Below are positions 2,715-22,802 of a stretch of 64,000 bases of DNA, piece after piece (positions within the stretch are counted from its first letter, which is position 1; every line of letters begins with the position of its first letter). The stretch covers positions 4,144 through 68,143 of the forward strand of contig JAZDQB010000028.1 of NCBI GenBank assembly GCA_043797205.1, in the 5' to 3' direction. A model generated the notes under the pieces. The model worked only from the letters and a program-made list of their open reading frames with translations. It was not told where the DNA came from and ran no database searches. Source of the stretch: Candidatus Woesearchaeota archaeon. Its GTDB lineage: Archaea; Nanobdellota; Nanobdellia; Woesearchaeales; GW2011-AR9. Position numbers and translations under genes: made by a program.

Positions 2715-4478
2715 CTAACAATAATACCACTTATTCATTTCTCTTTGCTCTCGATCTTTGACCGATCCTGGTTTATTAATTCGCGGTCGTTTAGAACTTA
2801 AATCACGTCTAAGGGTAATCCCTAATTCCTTCAAGAACATATTCATCCCTTCTTCCATCTTAAACGGACCATGCAAAGTTCCCTGCTTGGCCGGCTCACC
2901 GCTAAACACCATCAATCTATCAGAAAGATAATCTAAAAACATCAAGTCGTGATCTACCACCAATACCGTAATTCCTCTTTCAAAAGCCAAATTGCCCACC
3001 ACTTTAGAGATAAGTAGTCTTTGTTCTACATCCAGATAAGCCGAAGGTTCGTCCAGCAAAAATAATTCCGCATCTTGAGAAAGACATTTTACAATACTAA
3101 CCCGTTGCAGTTCTCCCCCAGACAATTCTTTCAATTTCTTAGTAAAGAGTTTCTCAATCTCTAACGGACGAATCAACTGATTGGAATATTTGCTTACTCC
3201 TTCCTGTAAGAAAGTCATCACTAATTGATCTGAATCCGTTTCCAGATACTGCGGCTTGTAAGCAATCTTAACCTTTTGATCAATCTCTCCGCTATCTGGT
3301 TCAATCAATCCGGCTAGAATCTTGATAAAAGAAGTTTTTCCGATACCGTTCTCTCCCAAGATTCCCACAATCTCTCCTCGATTCAAAGTACCCGGTTCCG
3401 CTTTCAAATTAAAATTACCCAACTTCTTATTCAATTCTGTCCAAGAGATTAAGGCCCGAGCGAATCCTTGCTGCTTATCCTGAGATTTCTCAAATTTGAT
3501 GTGCGAATCTCTAAAACGGACGTTCTCTTCCTTCAGATATCCATCTAAGAAAGAATTAATTCCTTCTCGAGTGGACTTTAATCCTGAGACTACTCCGTAA
3601 GCTTGTTCTTGTCCGTACATGATATTCAACAGATCAGTCATATAATCTAAAATAATCAGGTCGTGCTCAATGACCATCACCGCAGTTTTTTCATCAGCCA
3701 AAGCGCGGATGAATTTAGAGATATTCACGCGCTGTTTGATATCCAAATAAGAGGTGGGCTCATCAAAAAGAAATAAATTGGCACTTTTTAATACCGTCGC
3801 GGCAATAGCCACACGCTGCAATTCTCCGCCAGAAATATTCTGCACCGGAGTCTCTAAAAAGTTATTCAGCTGCAATTCTTTGCACACTTCTGCTAATCTC
3901 TTCTCATGATCTACCTTATGTAGCAATTCCTTCACCGTGCCGGAGAATTGTTTTGGAATCAAATCTACTTGCTGCGGTTTGTAAGAAAGAGTGATTTCAT
4001 CTTTATGCAACTTTTCTAAGAACCCTTGCATTTCTGTACCTTTAAAATAAGCAATGACTTCTTTAAAATCGGCCGGTTTGCGCCAATCTCCCAAGTTGGG
4101 AGTGATTTGTTTAGCTAAAATTCTTAACGCCGTAGTTTTACCAATCCCGTTCCTTCCCAAAATTCCGGTCACGTTCTTAAATAAAGGAGTAGGTAAAGAA
4201 AACAATTCAAACATATTTTCTCCGTAACGATGTACGGGAGATTTGTTTAGGGCTTCGGGAAGATTGATAATTTGAATCGCTTCATAAGGACAGCGTTTCG
4301 GGCAGATACCACAACCGGTACAGAGCATCTCATCGATCTGCGCTTTTTTAGTAGTTTCGTTGGGAGTAATACATTCCGCTCCGGTCCGATTGATCGGGCA
4401 CAACTTAGCACAAAGGTAACCTCCGCACTCTTGCGGGTGGCATTTCTGTCGTTCAATGATAGCAATGCGCTTAGTCAT
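2715..4478 (-). CDS. abcE1: ABCE1 (RNase L inhibitor homolog, ribosome recycling ATPase)
   Basis: N-terminal Cys-rich FeS region (CPINRTGAECI...CTGCGICPKRCP) followed by two ABC ATPase domains with Walker A GxxGxGKT twice and LSGGELQR twice. Likely start is the internal MTKRIAII. Confidence 0.9.
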   Translation of the reverse strand: MTKRIAIIERQKCHPQECGGYLCAKLCPINRTGAECITPNETTKKAQIDEMLCTGCGICPKRCPYEAIQIINLPEALNKSPVHRYGENMFELFSLPTPLFKNVTGILGRNGIGKTTALRILAKQITPNLGDWRKPADFKEVIAYFKGTEMQGFLEKLHKDEITLSYKPQQVDLIPKQFSGTVKELLHKVDHEKRLAEVCKELQLNNFLETPVQNISGGELQRVAIAATVLKSANLFLFDEPTSYLDIKQRVNISKFIRALADEKTAVMVIEHDLIILDYMTDLLNIMYGQEQAYGVVSGLKSTREGINSFLDGYLKEENVRFRDSHIKFEKSQDKQQGFARALISWTELNKKLGNFNLKAEPGTLNRGEIVGILGENGIGKTSFIKILAGLIEPDSGEIDQKVKIAYKPQYLETDSDQLVMTFLQEGVSKYSNQLIRPLEIEKLFTKKLKELSGGELQRVSIVKCLSQDAELFLLDEPSAYLDVEQRLLISKVVGNLAFERGITVLVVDHDLMFLDYLSDRLMVFSGEPAKQGTLHGPFKMEEGMNMFLKELGITLRRDLSSKRPRINKPGSVKDREQREMNKWYYC

Positions 4479-5215: not shown

Positions 5216-5305
5216 GCCTCTGTAGCTTAACGGTGGAGCGACTGCTTCGTATATACTTAATAAAGAAAGAGCAGTAGGCTGAGGGTTCAAATCCCTCCAG
5301 AGGCT
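5216..5305 (+). tRNA. tRNA-Thr(CGU) with an 18-nt intron at the canonical 37/38 position
   Basis: Cloverleaf read by eye: acceptor GCCTCTG/CAGAGGC, D arm GCTT-AACGGTG-GAGC, anticodon stem ACTGC/GCAGT with loop TTCGTA[TATACTTAATAAAGAAAG]A, T arm GAGGG-TTCAAAT-CCCTC, discriminator T. A T-run follows. Confidence 0.8.
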
Positions 5306-17558: not shown

Positions 17559-17699
17559 CTTCTTCAGAATACATTTTGGATTTATATAGCTTTCTTTGAA
17601 GTAAAATAAACACTATTATGCTTATTTGCGCAAGGTTTAAATAGGTCAAAAGAATACTTAACTTAGCACGTTTAGATTGTCAAAAGGGGGGTGAGTAGC

Positions 17700-17873
17700 A
17701 TGATCTATGAAGAAGATTATTGTGAGCTATTTGAAGAGGAGCTAGCTTTAGGCAGCGGAGAGAAAACTGCCAAATATTGCGAACTGTGCGAACTGCAAAG
17801 AGCTAACGAGAAGATGGTGACGGAAGTAATGGGAGTAGACATGAAAGACGTCAAAAACAAGATGTTAAAATAA
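17700..17873 (+). CDS. small hypothetical Cys-containing protein
   Basis: G-rich SD (GGGGGTGA) upstream of the ATG. 57 aa with CxxxxxxxxxxxxxxC..C. Weak. Confidence 0.3.
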   Translation: MIYEEDYCELFEEELALGSGEKTAKYCELCELQRANEKMVTEVMGVDMKDVKNKMLK

Positions 17874-17900
17874 TTTTTGTTTTTTTATTTCTTAGTATTT

Positions 17901-18968
17901 TTATTTTAGTGATCTATTTATTTCAATAGTAGAAATATCGTGCGGAAATGTCTTTTCGTATTTATCAATCACTTTTTGTCTTAAAATATAAGTATTGTAA
18001 TGGTGAGCGTACGCCAACCATCCTTCAAATACAGCATAAATTTGGTCGTAGTAAATTTTATTTAGCTCGAATTCTTCTTGCAATAAGAATATCTTCCGTT
18101 CCAGTTTTGGTACGTTTCCTTTTTTTAATAAGCGATGGAATGGGAAAATACGCGCACCTAAAAAAGTTATTCCTTGTTTGATAGAACGAATAGATGTTTT
18201 GTGTGGATGCAAGTGTAATTTTAAGTTAATAGTTAAGAAATTACTGATTTCTTGTCGATAAACTCGGAGCTTATCCTTATTGTTATCTAAAATTACAAAA
18301 TCATCTACGTAACGCAAGTAATATCTAATTTTTAATTTCCTTTTGATAAATTGATCCAGCTCATTCAAGTACACGTTCGCTAAGAATTGGGAAGTTAAGT
18401 TGCCCAAAGGCATTCCTTTATCAAAAGAATGGTTTCTTAATATTTTTCTAATTAACCACATCACTTTTTTATCTTTGATCTTTTTTTCAAGAATACGAAT
18501 TAAGATCGAATGATTTACTTCTTCGAAATAATGCTTTATATCTGCCTTTAACACGAATGTGTTTATGATATGGTTATTAGAAACTATCCTTGAAAAGGAT
18601 TCAAATCTTTTTATCGCTTTAAGAGTACCTTTTCCCTTCCGGTTGGCATAAGAATCATAAATGAAAGAAGTTTCAAAAATAGGTTCAATAAGATTACACA
18701 AAGCGTGATGTATCACTCTATCCCGAAAATGAGCTTTACTAATCTTTCTGGTTTTGGGATCGCGTACAATAAAGGTTTGCAATGGTTTTGGTTGATAAGC
18801 GTGTAAGAGCAGTTCTGTTCTAAGCAAAGAAAGATTATTTTGTAAATCCTTCTCAAATTCCAATACATAAGGCTTTTGCGTTTTATGTTTTCTCGCTTTC
18901 TTGTAAGCAAGATATAAATTATCTTCGCTGCATAATTTATCCCATAAATTACGATAAGTCTTCATGAA
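17901..18968 (-). CDS. DGR reverse transcriptase
   Basis: RT motifs include YVDDFVIL (YxDD) and LGNLTSQ, the DGR-type motif-4 signature I/LGxxxSQ. It lies immediately downstream of the TR. The track ORF extends to 19073 only because the TR is read in frame; the true start is probably MKTYRNLW. Confidence 0.85.
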   Translation of the reverse strand, partial: FMKTYRNLWDKLCSEDNLYLAYKKARKHKTQKPYVLEFEKDLQNNLSLLRTELLLHAYQPKPLQTFIVRDPKTRKISKAHFRDRVIHHALCNLIEPIFETSFIYDSYANRKGKGTLKAIKRFESFSRIVSNNHIINTFVLKADIKHYFEEVNHSILIRILEKKIKDKKVMWLIRKILRNHSFDKGMPLGNLTSQFLANVYLNELDQFIKRKLKIRYYLRYVDDFVILDNNKDKLRVYRQEISNFLTINLKLHLHPHKTSIRSIKQGITFLGARIFPFHRLLKKGNVPKLERKIFLLQEEFELNKIYYDQIYAVFEGWLAYAHHYNTYILRQKVIDKYEKTFPHDISTIEINRSLK

Positions 18969-18991
18969 CAAAAATCCTAGCCCAGCCAAGG

Positions 18992-19082
18992 TTATTCCGA
19001 GAAAACGGGCATTGTTGTTGAGATTGTTGTTGCCATTAAGGTTGTTGTTATGGTTGTTGCCCAAGACCAGCAAGCGCCCGCC
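18992..19082 (-). repeat. DGR template repeat (TR), ~91 nt
   Basis: Coding-strand sequence GCGGGCGCTTGCTGGTCTTGGGC(AAC AAC CAT AAC AAC AAC CTT AAT GGC AAC AAC AAT CTC AAC AAC AAT)GCCCGTTTTCTCGG. Twelve AAY codons. Identical to the VR except at adenines. Coordinates +/-2 nt. Confidence 0.85.
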
Positions 19083-19280
19083 TCTGTGTAGCTCTTTTAT
19101 CGTTATGCCACTGCTGCTTCGGTCTTTCCTTGCGTACTAGAGGTCGCAGCTGTATTTATCCTATTAGAACGTGTCTAATCGAAAGATTTTATGATGAGTC
19201 GCCTCAATCGTGATGAAAGAGCATGTAACCTTAGTATTGGCGGCATAACCGCTGTGGCTAAGATGAAGAAAAGTAAAGAA

Positions 19281-20087
19281 TTATCCTTTATATTGTTTTC
19301 TCAAATCACGACGTACTGCAGCTTCGTATTGCTTACGAACTGCTTCAGGAACGAATCTTTGTGAAGAAGCAAAAACCGTATTTAAGACCGTTTCTAAACT
19401 AGGAACAGTTCCTTTTTGCACTTCGCGCCCTGCGGGCGCACTCTCACCTACGACGCCTATCCGACGTACCCCGAGAAAACGGGCATTGCCGTTGAGAACG
19501 TAGTCGCCAACAAGGTTGCTGCCATGGCCGTAGCCCAAGACCAGCAAGCGCCCGCGAGGTTCTTCCGCCAGATCATCGCTATGCCAAATCCCAATATTGT
19601 CTCCATAAACTTTACGATGTTTAGCTAAATATCTCTTGGCAATATCTTCTCCACCTAAAAAAGGAATGGTTTGGGGATGCTCTAAAGCCGCATCAACAGA
19701 AATAACTTCAGAAGTAGATCTCTTCAAAACATCATAATCAACTTTGAAAACTTTACCATCGTCAATACGACCAGCTAAAGCATCAAATTCTTCTTGAGGA
19801 AAAGGTCCGGCACCATTTCGATGATGTTCTCGAGCATATTTTAGTTGTTCTGAATCATTCCAAGAAGTTTGGTCCTGAACGTAAAGAACGATCTTGCTGC
19901 CCCCTTTAGTAGTTCCCGTAATTCTTAAACTAGGAGTAGTCCACCAATTGGTAAACAAGTAGCTGTCATTCTTAGCTTTGATTCTTTTTTCAGCCAGTTC
20001 GGGCATATAAACAGCATCGTGAGCAACTTGACAAGCACGCAGAGCTTCTTCCATTATAGCATTGTAAAAAGGTTGATTTTTATTCAT
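19281..20087 (-). CDS. DGR target protein (variable protein), fold unknown
   Basis: 268-aa ORF containing the VR at about residues 178-207 (...GRLLVLGYGHGSNLVGDYVLNGNARFLGV...). No signal peptide. Confidence 0.8.
   Translation of the reverse strand: MNKNQPFYNAIMEEALRACQVAHDAVYMPELAEKRIKAKNDSYLFTNWWTTPSLRITGTTKGGSKIVLYVQDQTSWNDSEQLKYAREHHRNGAGPFPQEEFDALAGRIDDGKVFKVDYDVLKRSTSEVISVDAALEHPQTIPFLGGEDIAKRYLAKHRKVYGDNIGIWHSDDLAEEPRGRLLVLGYGHGSNLVGDYVLNGNARFLGVRRIGVVGESAPAGREVQKGTVPSLETVLNTVFASSQRFVPEAVRKQYEAAVRRDLRKQYKG
19425..19439 (-). other. GC-rich hairpin ~27 nt downstream of the VR 3' end (candidate DGR target-recognition hairpin)
   Basis: GCGCCC-GCA-GGGCGC on the coding strand (6-bp GC stem, 3-nt loop), in the position where DGR VR-proximal hairpin/cruciform elements are found. 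Confidence 0.5.
19466..19555 (-). repeat. DGR variable repeat (VR)
   Basis: 90-nt match to the TR with 16 mismatches. Every mismatch is at a TR adenine (AAC->TAC, GGC, GGC, AGC; AAT->GTT; AAC->GAC, TAC; AAT->GTT; AAC->GGC; GGA->GGG; ATA->GTA). Confidence 0.85.
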
Positions 20088-20312
20088 TGTTTCACCGAAG
20101 CTAACAAAAAGGGAGGTAATATTTAAATGTTTTGCTACTTTAAAGTTGTAATCCAGAAAGGAGCTGTTGGGAAAAAGCCACTACCCACTGGTCACAAGAA
20201 ATAAGAAAACTATCTTATTTCTGTGCAGAAATGAAGAGTTCCCCTTCATTTCTTGCAAGTCCGGCTAAGGTATATAAACCACCTCTTCTTTAAGCTTAAT
20301 CAGGTGGTTGAA

Positions 20313-20705
20313 ATGGAAAACGCTTTAGCCGTATTTGAAGGTAAGAAAATTAGAAAAACTTGGCATAATAATGAATGGTGGTTTGTAATCGAAGATGTAG
20401 TTCAAGCTTTGACCGATTCTAATGACCCTAAGCAGTATATCAATAAAATGAGACAAAGAGATGAAATTTTGTCTCAAGGGTGGGTACAAATTGTACATAC
20501 CTTTTTGGTAGATACTTCTGGTGGTAAGCAGAATATGAATTGTTCTAATACAGAAGGATTATTTCGTATAATCCAGTCTATTCCTTCTATAAAAGTTGAA
20601 CCTTTCAAATTATGGTTAGCTAAAGTGGGTTATGAACGTGTTCAAGAGATTCAGAATCCGGAATTAGCTCAAGATAAAGTTAAACGATATCCATTATTTT
20701 GTTAA
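20313..20705 (+). CDS. Bro-N domain protein (phage/virus antirepressor-like)
   Basis: ALAVFEGKKIRKTWHNNEWWFVIEDVVQAL...NTEGLFRIIQSIPSIKVEPFKLWLAKVGYERV matches the Bro-N architecture. SD AGGTGGT lies before MENALAV. Confidence 0.65.
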   Translation: MENALAVFEGKKIRKTWHNNEWWFVIEDVVQALTDSNDPKQYINKMRQRDEILSQGWVQIVHTFLVDTSGGKQNMNCSNTEGLFRIIQSIPSIKVEPFKLWLAKVGYERVQEIQNPELAQDKVKRYPLFC

Positions 20706-20870
20706 TTACAACTAGAAAAAAGAGGTAAGGTCAGAACTCTTAACAAAAACTTTTCCCTTTGAACAAGGTCGTCAGACTCCTACCTAAAAGTTTTTTGTGA
20801 GTTCTGCCAAACTACCTCCTTTTCCGAATACTCTAGGCTTTAATGCTTGAAAAGCTTAGAGGTGAAATAA

Positions 20871-21503
20871 ATGGAAAATAAATTAAAATTAGCAGAAATC
20901 GTTGGAATAATGCTTGGTGACGGATGTTTGTATAAAGAAAAGCGACGTAATCGTTATCAAACAACTATTTGTTTTCATAAAAAAGAAACAGATTACTTAA
21001 GTCATGTTAAGATACTATTTGAAGATTATTTTAAATACAAATTTTACGTAACTGAAATAGCGCATGAAATGTTGCTTAGAAACGGTAGTTTAGTAGTAGG
21101 AGAAAAGTTAATCAGCTTTGGATTATATCCTGGAAGTAAGATTGATAACAAAGTAGTAATCCCTTCTTGGATATTTAGTAATAAAGAATTCATTAAAAGA
21201 ACAGTGAGAGGACTTTTTGATACGGATGGATGCGTTTACAAGAAATATGATAGATATGCTCAGATTGTCTTTAAATTTGGATGCAAAGAAACTACTAACT
21301 CTTTAAGAGAAGCTATAATTATTTTGGGTTTTAATCCAACTAAAACCGAGAAGGGATATAATAAAGCGAAGCACACCTTTTTTCATAAATTCTATCTATC
21401 CAGACAAGGTGAAATTAAGAAGTTCTTTCAAAAGATAGAACCAAAAAATCCAAAGCATGTTAAAAGGTATGAGAAAATAAGAGGTGGGGACGCCGCGATT
21501 TGA
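20871..21503 (+). CDS. free-standing LAGLIDADG homing endonuclease (double-motif)
   Basis: Two LAGLIDADG motifs: IVGIMLGDGCL and VRGLFDTDGCV. SD AGAGGTGA upstream. Confidence 0.8.
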   Translation: MENKLKLAEIVGIMLGDGCLYKEKRRNRYQTTICFHKKETDYLSHVKILFEDYFKYKFYVTEIAHEMLLRNGSLVVGEKLISFGLYPGSKIDNKVVIPSWIFSNKEFIKRTVRGLFDTDGCVYKKYDRYAQIVFKFGCKETTNSLREAIIILGFNPTKTEKGYNKAKHTFFHKFYLSRQGEIKKFFQKIEPKNPKHVKRYEKIRGGDAAI

Positions 21504-21659
21504 ACGCGGATCCGAAGCTAGCTTCAGGAAAGTTTTGTCATCGCCGAAGCTCAACTCTCCAATTCTGGAGGCTCCTATTTTGGTCAGTGACTTTTAAATC
21601 ACTTCTAGCCAAGATGCACCCAGATGCCGCAAGGCAATGTGGATTATACTACGTCCCCA
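21485..21659 (-). tRNA. tRNA-like element: candidate intron-containing tRNA (tentatively anticodon CCA/Trp, at least 2 introns), or a tRNA-derived remnant
   Basis: Minus strand: 5' GGGGACG-TA... and 3' ...CCGCG-TTCAAAT-CGCGG-CGTCCCC-A-CC give a perfect 7-bp acceptor and T arm. A possible anticodon arm GGAGC-CTCCAG[45-nt intron]A-GCTTC fits. The D-arm region only folds if a further ~50-nt intron is assumed. Confidence 0.4.
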
Positions 21660-21713
21660 CAATCTACAAAACAAGAGAATTGTTTATTAAGTTTTTGCTC
21701 TTTTTACTCAAAA

Positions 21714-22802
21714 ATGATCGAATTAGACGGATCTCATGGAGAAGGCGGCGGTGCCCTAGTTCGAGTAGCTCTTGCTCTCAGCACCCTCACCGAACAAGAA
21801 TTTAAAGTAACCAACATCCGTGCCAACCGCCCCGAACCGGGATTAAAAGCACAACATCTGGAAGCGATTAACGCTCTGAAACAGATCTGTGATGCCGAAA
21901 CTAATGAGATTAAGATTGGCACTACAGAATTATATTTCAAACCAGGAAAGATTAAACGCGGAATTTATGAAATAGATATCGGTACCGCCGGCAGCATCAG
22001 CTTAGTATTACAAGCATTAATTCTACCCTGCATGTTCGCTCCGGGAAAAGTGACTTTAAAGATTAAAGGAGGAACTTGCGGTAAATGGCAAGCTTCCGTT
22101 TATTACTTACAAAATATTTTACTTCCCCATCTGCAGAAATTTGTCGATAAGATTGAATTAAAGATCTTCAAGCCCGGATATTATCCGCAAGGAGGAGGAG
22201 AAGTGCAACTGGAAATTACTCCAAGATTTAACATTCGTAAATACCAGTATGTAGAAGATTTCCTGAAAGAATTGAAAGTGCCACGGATTAAATTATTAGA
22301 AGCAGATAAATTAGAGCAAATTCGTGGAGTGGTCAATGTTTCTTCAGAACTGCAAGAAAAAGAGGTAGGTGAAAGAATTAAGAAAACAGCAGAGATGGCT
22401 CTAAGAAAATATGATGTTCCGATAAATGTCCGCTCCGAATACGCCAAAACTCTTAATGTTGGTGGAGAGATAGTATTATGGGCTTTATTCAGTGAAAAAG
22501 GTAAAGTTGATTCGGATAATCAAGTAATTATAGGAGCAGATGCTTTAGTAGAAAAGAACAAGAGTTCTGAACAAGTGGGAAAGGAAGCGACAGAAGCCTT
22601 AAGCAAAGAAATTAATAAAAAGAATGTGACTGACCATTACTTATTAGACCAATTAATTCCTTTTATGGCCTTGCTTCCCGGATCAGAAGTCCAAACCACC
22701 GAAATTAGCGAGCATGCTTATACTAATATGCATGTATGCAAACAATTCGTTCCCATCACCTTTAAAGTGGTTAAGGGAAAGATTAAGGTGGAATTAAGAT
22801 AG
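21714..22802 (+). CDS. rtcA: RNA 3'-terminal phosphate cyclase
   Basis: MIELDGSHGEGGGALVRVALALSTLTEQEFKVTNIRANRPEPGLKAQH matches the RtcA N-terminal signature. Start moved to the internal Met. Confidence 0.85.
   Translation: MIELDGSHGEGGGALVRVALALSTLTEQEFKVTNIRANRPEPGLKAQHLEAINALKQICDAETNEIKIGTTELYFKPGKIKRGIYEIDIGTAGSISLVLQALILPCMFAPGKVTLKIKGGTCGKWQASVYYLQNILLPHLQKFVDKIELKIFKPGYYPQGGGEVQLEITPRFNIRKYQYVEDFLKELKVPRIKLLEADKLEQIRGVVNVSSELQEKEVGERIKKTAEMALRKYDVPINVRSEYAKTLNVGGEIVLWALFSEKGKVDSDNQVIIGADALVEKNKSSEQVGKEATEALSKEINKKNVTDHYLLDQLIPFMALLPGSEVQTTEISEHAYTNMHVCKQFVPITFKVVKGKIKVELR

Follow-up and report, generated by a model that had tools for sequence, protein, structure and literature searches.

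In a 64,000-nucleotide (nt) stretch of contig JAZDQB010000028.1, from a Candidatus Woesearchaeota archaeon (assembly GCA_043797205.1; the whole stretch is hereafter the window), a LAGLIDADG homing-endonuclease gene and rtcA bracket an element on the minus strand at 21658-21485. This element is very probably an expressed tRNA-Trp(CCA) gene of a DPANN archaeon (Woesearchaeota/Nanoarchaeia-like) that is interrupted by three protein-spliced bulge-helix-bulge (BHB) introns, the splicing of which we infer from sequence. The parts of the locus are given below in the direction of the tRNA, with the two flanking genes last; introns are lettered A to C, and each intron site is named by the two tRNA positions that it separates.

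21683-21690, minus strand: TATA-like box TTAATAAA, read directly, centred ~29 nt 5' of G1, within the 55 nt that separate the tRNA from divergent rtcA
21644-21658, minus strand: exon 1, G1-A15 (GGGGACG UA GUAU AA), 15 nt; acceptor 5' strand, positions 8-9, D-stem 5' strand, A14 and A15
21614-21643, minus strand: intron A, 30 nt, site 15/16 in the D-loop, HBh' motif; UCCACAUUGCCUUGCGGCAUCUGGGUGCAU
21605-21613, minus strand: exon 2, a 9-nt micro-exon, C16-G22 (CUUGGCUAG); the rest of the D-loop with G18G19 and A21, and the first nucleotide of the D-stem 3' strand
21580-21604, minus strand: intron B, 25 nt, site 22/23 in the D-stem 3' strand, relaxed HBh' motif; AAGUGAUUUAAAAGUCACUGACCAA
21565-21579, minus strand: exon 3, A23-G37 (AAU A GGAGC CUCCAG), 15 nt; D-stem 3' strand, position 26, anticodon-stem 5' strand and loop with CCA
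21520-21564, minus strand: intron C, 45 nt, canonical site 37/38, with the anticodon stem as outer helix
21538-21561, minus strand: guide and kink-turn (K-turn) module within intron C, UGGAG - AG - UUGA - GC-UUCG-GC hairpin - GAUGA
21485-21519, minus strand: exon 4, A38-A73 (A GCUUC GGAU CCGCG UUCAAAU CGCGG CGUCCCC A), 35 nt
21471-21484, minus strand: T-rich trailer CCUCUUAUUUUCUC, read directly
20871-21503, plus strand: LAGLIDADG homing-endonuclease gene, convergent with the tRNA (Pfam LAGLIDADG_3 and LAGLIDADG_2)
21714-22802, plus strand: rtcA (RNA 3'-phosphate cyclase), divergent, 55 nt from G1 (Pfam RTC and RTC_insert)

The acceptor stem can be read directly from the minus strand as GGGGACG (21658-21652) against CGTCCCC (21492-21486), with all seven pairs formed and the discriminator A following at 21485. 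A perfect T arm of five base pairs (bp), CCGCG-TTCAAAT-CGCGG, lies at 21509-21493, and the two halves of an anticodon arm, GGAGC-CUCCAG (21575-21565) and A-GCUUC (21519-21514), stand on either side of a 45-nt insert. An earlier note on this DNA had described the same perfect acceptor and T arm, a tRNA-Trp(CCA) anticodon arm closed across some 45 nt, and ends about 175 nt apart; all of this holds, the distance being 174 nt and the insert an intron at 37/38. Once spliced, the anticodon arm reads GGAGC-CUCCAGA-GCUUC: a 5-bp stem and a 7-nt loop with U33, anticodon CCA and a purine at 37. The A14, G18G19 and A21 expected of a D arm emerge only once introns A and B have been removed as well. The tRNA has G1-C72 and A73, which are identity elements of archaeal and eukaryal tRNA-Trp. 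The CCA end is not encoded (the flank after A73 reads CCU) and the 3' flanks vary among orthologues, so CCA would be added after transcription.

When the spliced 74-mer is submitted to ARAGORN with default settings, tRNA-Trp(cca) is returned. From the unspliced region, by contrast, no tRNA is called here by ARAGORN in either its default or its intron mode (the latter a check that the earlier note had proposed), and the Rfam tRNA model gives no match at the gathering threshold or at E<=10; at E<=10, Rfam offers just a weak C/D match and, below threshold, one resembling tmRNA that covers the T arm and acceptor. With three introns the gene lies in four pieces, which is why standard tRNA finders miss it. 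A tRNA-Arg(gcg) with an 86-nt intron, which ARAGORN proposes at lowered thresholds, was rejected as spurious: its D arm is poor and the structure implausible. The combination of a perfect T arm and a 7-bp acceptor within 330 nt occurs at two places in the window, here and at a tRNA at 5216-5305, but Markov-shuffled windows contain a mean of 0.37 such matches (26 of 100 shuffles have at least one), so the signature alone is not significant. We regard the element as real because about 30 related contigs exhibit conservation, covariation and exact restoration of the mature tRNA.

The tRNA at 5216-5305 (plus strand) is the sole tRNA that ARAGORN finds in the window. Its default label, a 90-nt tRNA-Arg(tcg), is probably wrong: in intron mode it becomes a tRNA-Thr(cgt) in which 18 nt at 37/38 are intron, and this reading has the more canonical loop (U33, A37), with an imperfect BHB motif in which the central helix forms three of four pairs.

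Orthologous genes with one to five introns

The boundaries of the three introns are fixed by comparison with orthologues. An exact-pattern scan of public genomes and metagenomes with the 25-nt 3' half as query recovered 8 genome and 17 metagenome loci, the former being Nanoarchaeia/Woesearchaeota-type DPANN metagenome-assembled genomes (MAGs), a few of them labelled Methanosarcinales. Together with the window these yield 20 distinct pre-tRNA sequences, and 8 more were reached through the neighbours of endonuclease homologues; in all, the set of orthologues drawn from DPANN MAGs and metagenomes numbers about 30 genes, with introns that vary in number between one, two, three and even five. The same 5' end (GGGGACGUAGUAUAA), the CUCCAG of the anticodon loop and the 3' half recur in all 20 precursors, which differ by discrete insertions. 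The intron combinations are these (loci other than the window are numbered with an L):

37/38 only: L001, L008, L019
15/16 (after GUAUAA) and 37/38: ten sequences
22/23 or 23/24, and 37/38: L002, L006, L012
15/16, 22/23 (23/24 in L017) and 37/38: the window, L021, L017

L034 also has three introns. Eighteen sequences were segmented by hand and the segmentation was verified by script: removal of the proposed introns leaves products of 73-74 nt. The precursors L015 and L025, each with two introns, become identical on splicing to spliced L001, which has one intron, and L003 and L018, whose D-loop introns are two unrelated versions, become identical to spliced L008. Intron A is absent from L001, L008, L019, L002 and L006, and present in 13 distinct orthologues and further in L030, L033 and L034. 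The site of intron B is occupied at 22/23 in L021, L002, L006, L026, L027, L029, L031 and L034, and at 23/24 in L017 and L012. Intron C is found in all orthologues, at lengths of 34-68 nt. Exon 1 is nearly invariant, the exceptions being acceptor positions 5/6 in some lineages and positions 8-10 in L011. Exon 2 reads C(C/U)UGG(C/U)(U)AG in all orthologues, and is joined to exon 1, exon 3 or both wherever the introns are absent.

These comparisons raise the earlier estimate of at least two introns to three. They also modify the earlier proposal that the D arm forms only if a further non-canonical intron of ~50 nt is removed: non-canonical removal is indeed needed, but it concerns two introns, of 30 and 25 nt, that flank a conserved 9-nt exon.

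Another line of evidence is covariation in the cloverleaf. In an alignment of 15 spliced sequences, some of them more distant and differing in their acceptor and T stems, 95.2% of the cloverleaf cells are paired, against 40-52% in slid-partner controls. Eight pairs show double changes, including four of the five anticodon-stem pairs, which span the 37/38 intron; none of 500 shuffles reached the covariation score. The 7-bp acceptor stem and the 5-bp T stem, with its UUCAAAU-type loop, are 100% paired across these sequences, with compensatory changes.

Two relatives hold further D-arm or nearby inserts at approximate positions: L011 has one after AACCUGG in the D-loop, and L032 has one near 25/26-26/27.

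Bulge-helix-bulge motifs and the predicted splicing pathway

BHB motifs were examined in a register of two 3-nt bulges, each cut after its second nucleotide, with a 4-bp helix between them. It agrees with a review's account of 37/38 introns, in which the central 4-bp helix includes anticodon nucleotides one and two (PMC4090602). Motifs compatible with this register are present at all three junction pairs in the window, as the earlier note had required of its proposed junctions, with four of four central pairs for intron A and three of four for each of B and C; they are of relaxed form, HBh' in A and B and with a C34·A mismatch in C.

In intron A of the window, G10-U13 pair with GUGC (4/4), the bulges are AA|U and AU|C, and the inner helix is CCA/UGG followed by UGCC/GGCA. 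The partner of G10-U13, which is GUGC, GUAC, GUAA or GUAU, always lies just 5' of the last two intron nucleotides, and in 13 of 13 sequences the central helix has 3-4 of its 4 bp and is followed immediately by an inner helix of at least 3 bp. Four unrelated versions of that inner helix occur: CCA/UGG, GGAA/UUCC, CCAA/UUGG and CUGUC/GACAG. In intron B of the window, GGCU faces GACC (3/4, with one C·A), the bulges are AG|A and AA|A, and the inner helix is AGUGAUU/AGUCACU; the register fits all five of the sequences scored, with covarying central helices (GGCU/GGCU, GCUA/UAGC, UGGC/GCUA) and five different inner helices among homologues. Covariation thus extends to both D-arm introns. In intron C, C32-C35 face GAAG (3/4, the C34·A mismatch being conserved) and the bulges are AG|A and CU|A; the outer helix, which is the anticodon stem, is present and the inner helix is interrupted. 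The strict hBHBh' form is not found for introns A and B: their outer helix is 1 bp in the window and 0-1 bp in nearly all orthologues. By their predicted pairing, then, introns A and B are of the relaxed HBh' type, and relaxed motifs are a recognised class for non-canonical introns (PMC3239211, PMC5829648).

Putative expression signals flank the gene. The upstream box recurs as (A)nCTTAATAAA, TTTAAATA or TTATAAAT at the same distance in nearly all orthologues, and the TTAATAAA box would be the promoter. T-rich tails also lie 3' of the gene in orthologues, and the T-rich trailer of the window is likely an archaeal terminator.

We propose the following pathway. The TATA-like box at about -29 would drive a ~174-nt pre-tRNA containing the three BHB introns, each of which, together with exon nucleotides on either side, would form a 4-bp helix between two 3-nt bulges; the central helices of the D-arm introns would use G10-U13 (intron A) and, in the window, G18, G19, C20 and U20a (intron B). 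The archaeal splicing endonuclease would cut after the second nucleotide of each bulge, and an RtcB-type ligase would join exons of 15, 9, 15 and 35 nt into a 74-nt tRNA, to which CCA would then be added. The 37/38 intron, before or after its excision, may act as a half-size box C/D-like guide: UGGAG would pair with C32-A36, and a D'/C'-like K-turn would place C34 at the N+5 position for 2'-O-methylation.

A number of points count against the three-intron gene and its splicing. In the window there is one mismatched pair in the central helix of intron B and one in that of intron C, and a small internal loop precedes the inner helix of intron C (GGAGAG/CUUUCC). Scanning this one sequence for BHB motifs does not discriminate, since 87 of 11,430 arbitrary junction pairs pass the same criteria; the motifs are convincing only because the junctions are fixed independently by the orthologues. 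Nearest-neighbour folding of the precursor reaches its minimum free energy (-64.7 kcal/mol) in a structure other than the three-BHB one, for which the score is -43.1 kcal/mol; the minimum-energy fold retains the acceptor and T arm together with the intron hairpins, and the BHB helices are not recovered in it. The mature D stem is weak (G10·U25, U11-A24, A12xA23, U13·G22), with 75% of its cells paired, and is invariant in this weakness throughout the clade, in the window and all orthologues. The sequences entered into the covariation analysis had been spliced by hand, partly guided by complementarity. A second tRNA-Trp gene may exist elsewhere in the genome, our view being limited to the window. 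Finally, the transcription, the cleavage and ligation, the enzymes and the methylation of the pathway are predictions.

It can be observed separately that the 5' strand of the D stem serves also as a strand of the central BHB helix of the 15/16 intron.

Multiple introns in one tRNA gene have precedents in Thermoproteales and ARMAN-2: the tRNA-Pro of Pyrobaculum islandicum has introns at 25/26, 37/38 and 56/57, and that of ARMAN-2 at 53/54 and 59/60 (BHB/HBh'). The gene in the window resembles these in its 3-4-3 BHB introns, predicted to be spliced by protein, in the combination of one canonical with non-canonical introns, in its relaxed HBh' motifs outside the anticodon loop, and in having three introns, the highest number stated for one tRNA gene (PMC3239211, PMC4390854); 22/23 is a listed intron site (PMC4090602), while 15/16 is not confirmed as listed. 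It differs from them in that it comes from a Woesearchaeota/Nanoarchaeia-type DPANN archaeon, in that its two D-arm introns are only 9 nt apart, in that intron presence varies among close relatives encoding the same mature tRNA, and in that one relative, L026, appears to carry five introns.

This last relative deserves description. In L026 (logan ERR2281800_2907), at about 2148-2363 on the strand opposite the endonuclease gene, lies a 216-nt tRNA-Trp precursor with five putative BHB introns, at 15/16, 22/23, 37/38, 53/54 and 59/60. Once these are removed the T arm is exactly that found uninterrupted in L032, and ARAGORN calls tRNA-Trp. In L027, at about 2128-2319, there are three introns (22/23, 37/38 and 53/54), of which the one at 53/54 is common with L026 and has a different inner helix. 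A literature search for 'four introns' found no archaeal case, and the five putative introns of L026 would exceed the published maximum of three.

A guide-like module in the 37/38 intron

Intron C contains a pattern that is conserved throughout the clade, UGGAG(N2)-NUGA-short hairpin-RAUGA, in which UGGAG is complementary to C32-A36. In the window, UUGA is D'-like, GAUGA is C'-like, and a D-like CUGA follows downstream at 21524-21527. Box C/D guides obey an N+5 rule, and the D'-loop-C' arrangement is that of a kink-loop (K-loop) (PMC7994747); in other archaea the tRNA-Trp intron guides Cm34 and Um39 (PMC4090602). The antisense of intron C conforms to that rule: C34 lies opposite the nucleotide five places upstream from the NNGA box in 22 of 26 sequences when scored by script, and in 24 of 26 after correction of two mis-parses by the regular expression. 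This spacing is kept while intron length ranges from 34 to 68 nt. The succession NUGA - short hairpin - RAUGA of a C'/D' K-loop is likewise found in 24 of 26 sequences, as a sequence pattern only.

The closest comparison is with the guide in the pre-tRNA-Trp of Haloferax volcanii and the Pyrococcus sR50 (Cm34, Um39). Our intron resides in the same tRNA at the same 37/38 position, is antisense to the anticodon loop with C34 at N+5 from a D'-type box, and has its D'/C' motifs arranged as a K-loop. It is shorter, at 45 nt (34-68 nt across the clade) where the median is 65 nt; it has neither a box C nor a guide for position 39 (which is G39 here); and its 3' D-like CUGA, which some lineages lack, shares nucleotides with the BHB central helix.

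We infer that intron C works like the known tRNA-Trp intron guide for C34, and we stop short of classing it with the complete box C/D RNAs. Two points speak against this guide function: intron C contains no box C (RUGAUGA), and half-size C/D RNAs are reportedly poor guides in vitro. A box C/box D pair is accordingly missing, and the 3' CUGA, besides overlapping the BHB central helix, is absent in L007, L019, L029, L032 and L033. There is no second guide for position 39, as CAAAACUUUC, upstream of CUGA, is not complementary to A38-G44. The curated C/D covariance models of Rfam give no match at threshold; the best is sR39, with 11.5 bits against a gathering threshold of 50.

These features leave room for another interpretation, in which UUGA...GAUGA is only a structural or protein-binding (L7Ae) K-turn that aids folding or splicing, or else is the relic of a full box C/D RNA. 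The missing box C, the CUGA that is not universal, and the lack of an Rfam C/D match at threshold would all suit it, as would the second 'guide', which lacks complementarity to exon 2 and pairs instead with the first guide as the BHB inner helix. We nevertheless consider it unlikely, though it deserves to be taken seriously, given that the exact N+5 spacing to C34 is retained in 22-24 of 26 diverged sequences despite lengths of 34-68 nt, and that the geometry matches a function of the tRNA-Trp intron that is experimentally known in other archaea (PMC4090602, PMC7994747).

Neighbouring genes, a mosaic tract and possible homing

The LAGLIDADG gene, which is a neighbour and not a part of the tRNA, ends in a 19-nt overlap with the tRNA 3' end that includes its TGA stop, in the complement of the T-loop. 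Its 82 homologues at E<=1e-5 come mostly from Nanoarchaeota-type MAGs, and in every DPANN locus with readable DNA (the window, L006, L012, L019, L026, L027 and L029-L034) the homologue lies directly at the 3' end of a tRNA-Trp and is convergent with it. Its stop codon falls between 53 nt inside (-53) and 24 nt beyond (+24) the tRNA discriminator. Four of these homologues have the following coordinates:

L012: 542-1171
L019: 198-893
L026: 1501-2124
L027: 1501-2118

Many relatives have no LAGLIDADG gene at this site, and a permease gene is then about 100 bp from the tRNA. This pattern of presence and absence looks like that of a free-standing homing endonuclease with its site at the tRNA-Trp 3' boundary. 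The LAGLIDADG neighbour, which the earlier note had thought suggestive, is therefore meaningful, since its family sits at the tRNA-Trp 3' end, but in another way. Like the free-standing homing endonucleases encoded beside conserved genes (for example the phage T4 seg genes) and the LAGLIDADG proteins of archaeal rRNA introns, it is an intact open reading frame (ORF) with a double motif, and it is polymorphic in presence at one fixed site beside highly conserved sequence; unlike them, it stands outside any intron or intein, its site is a tRNA gene 3' boundary, it has no relative by sequence in the PDB (a search with the protein gave no match), and its homing role is a prediction. A hand count revealed no clear correlation between the number of introns and the presence of the endonuclease gene (about 2.4 versus 2.0 introns). 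Farther afield, a Bathyarchaeia homologue (L028, 37% identical) lies 66 nt from a tRNA that carries a 105-nt intron.

The adjacency of rtcA is a different matter. The order permease - tRNA-Trp - rtcA - aEF-1beta is kept in relatives with one, two or three introns, and since the same synteny holds for one-intron orthologues, the position of rtcA, which had been thought suggestive, is uninformative about the extra introns; we rejected a functional coupling between the two for this reason. An exact look-up of the RtcA protein found no record.

Compared with most relatives, the window and L021 carry an extra ~3.9 kb that separates the permease gene from the 3' end of the tRNA (17560-21485 in the window). 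The contents in the window are as follows:

17901-19073, minus strand: reverse transcriptase
19083-19263, minus strand: Rfam RT-16 RNA, 53.7 bits, directly upstream of the reverse transcriptase
within the insert: an ORF of 268 aa, no function assigned
20253-20705: ORF with a Bro-N domain
20871-21503, plus strand: the LAGLIDADG gene

The insert is shared by L021 up to about 20670, as far as the Bro-N gene, and L021 has no detectable LAGLIDADG homologue.

The similarity of the window to its relatives changes along the locus. The segment 21480-21720, with the tRNA and its promoter, is 80-97% identical to L021 and only 37-87% to L006, whereas the flanking LAGLIDADG and rtcA DNA (21120-21420, 21960-22500) is 90-100% identical to L006 and far from L021. 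Two origins come into question for this mosaic: a tract of gene conversion at the locus of the tRNA, or an assembly that is chimeric between strains. Carried further, the second option would make the three-intron combination itself an artefact, produced when a metagenome assembly joined alleles with different introns, and both the mosaic and the invariant exons, at which an assembler could switch strains, lend this some colour. We consider it improbable: L021 and L017, which are independent assemblies, have the same three-intron architecture, L034 has three introns and L026 five. A chimera could explain the mosaic, but would not invent the gene structure.

More improbable still is the suggestion, also raised in the earlier note, that the element is a decayed tRNA-Trp pseudogene or an attachment-site (att) remnant whose insertions are junk and from which no working tRNA is made. 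One might expect standard tools to pass over such a relic, as they do here, and its D stem to be weak; mobile DNA (reverse transcriptase, Bro-N, LAGLIDADG) does adjoin the 3' end. Decay is nonetheless hard to reconcile with exons that are essentially invariant in many genomes, with inserts that vary yet always retain BHB geometry, with stems that covary, and with a promoter box and terminator conserved at the syntenic position in about 30 contigs. Moreover, a search for att repeats found no tRNA-end repeat of at least 12 nt within the adjacent insertion (matches of 12-14 nt elsewhere in the window, at 3745 and 55808, look like chance), and the acceptor and T-arm scan found no other tRNA-Trp-like element in the window.

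Barely credible, lastly, is a gene of only two introns, with one non-canonical D-arm intron of ~50-64 nt besides that at 37/38: a single deletion can unite the ends of the D region (GUAUAA ... AAUA), and ARAGORN accepts 84 of 172 single-deletion products, so that an exhaustive D-region deletion test is not discriminating, but CUUGGCUAG is conserved, is contiguous exon sequence in orthologues without one or both inserts and supplies G18G19 and A21, and each insert has its own BHB motif and is found alone in other genomes.

Returning to the three-intron gene, we can place it in a known context. Multi-intron archaeal tRNA genes and a guide-bearing tRNA-Trp intron are already known, and the gene in the window is a new member in DPANN. 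The parts of Kaneta et al. 2018 (PMC5829648) considered here report increased tRNA gene disruption in DPANN lineages with an L3-loop endonuclease, and take incomplete DPANN tRNA sets to point to unidentified disrupted genes; the gene in the window is such a hidden disrupted gene, and its tRNA-Trp architecture and intron polymorphism are not described in those parts.

We hypothesize, tentatively and as a rather unlikely proposition, that the tRNA-Trp locus of this clade is a hot spot of homing and recombination, at which the LAGLIDADG family would target the 3' boundary and conversion would move BHB introns in and out. Double-strand breaks made by the LAGLIDADG protein, or recombination across the invariant exons generally, would drive such allelic gene conversion. 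If true, this would explain the patchy distribution of one to five introns, the mosaic tract at 21480-21720 and the five introns of L026, and would give BHB tRNA introns a concrete route of spread at the DNA level.

For the biology of this clade the finding means, in the first place, that routine annotation would make its genomes seem to lack tRNA-Trp. The short 37/38 intron may be a minimal form of the tRNA-Trp guide RNA. The roughly 30 orthologues constitute a natural experiment on intron gain and loss, in which genes of one, two, three or five introns give the same mature tRNA, and in which the intron states sometimes differ between genomes whose flanks are >90% identical; the neighbouring homing endonuclease and the apparent conversion tract make this a locus at which the spread of BHB introns can be tested.

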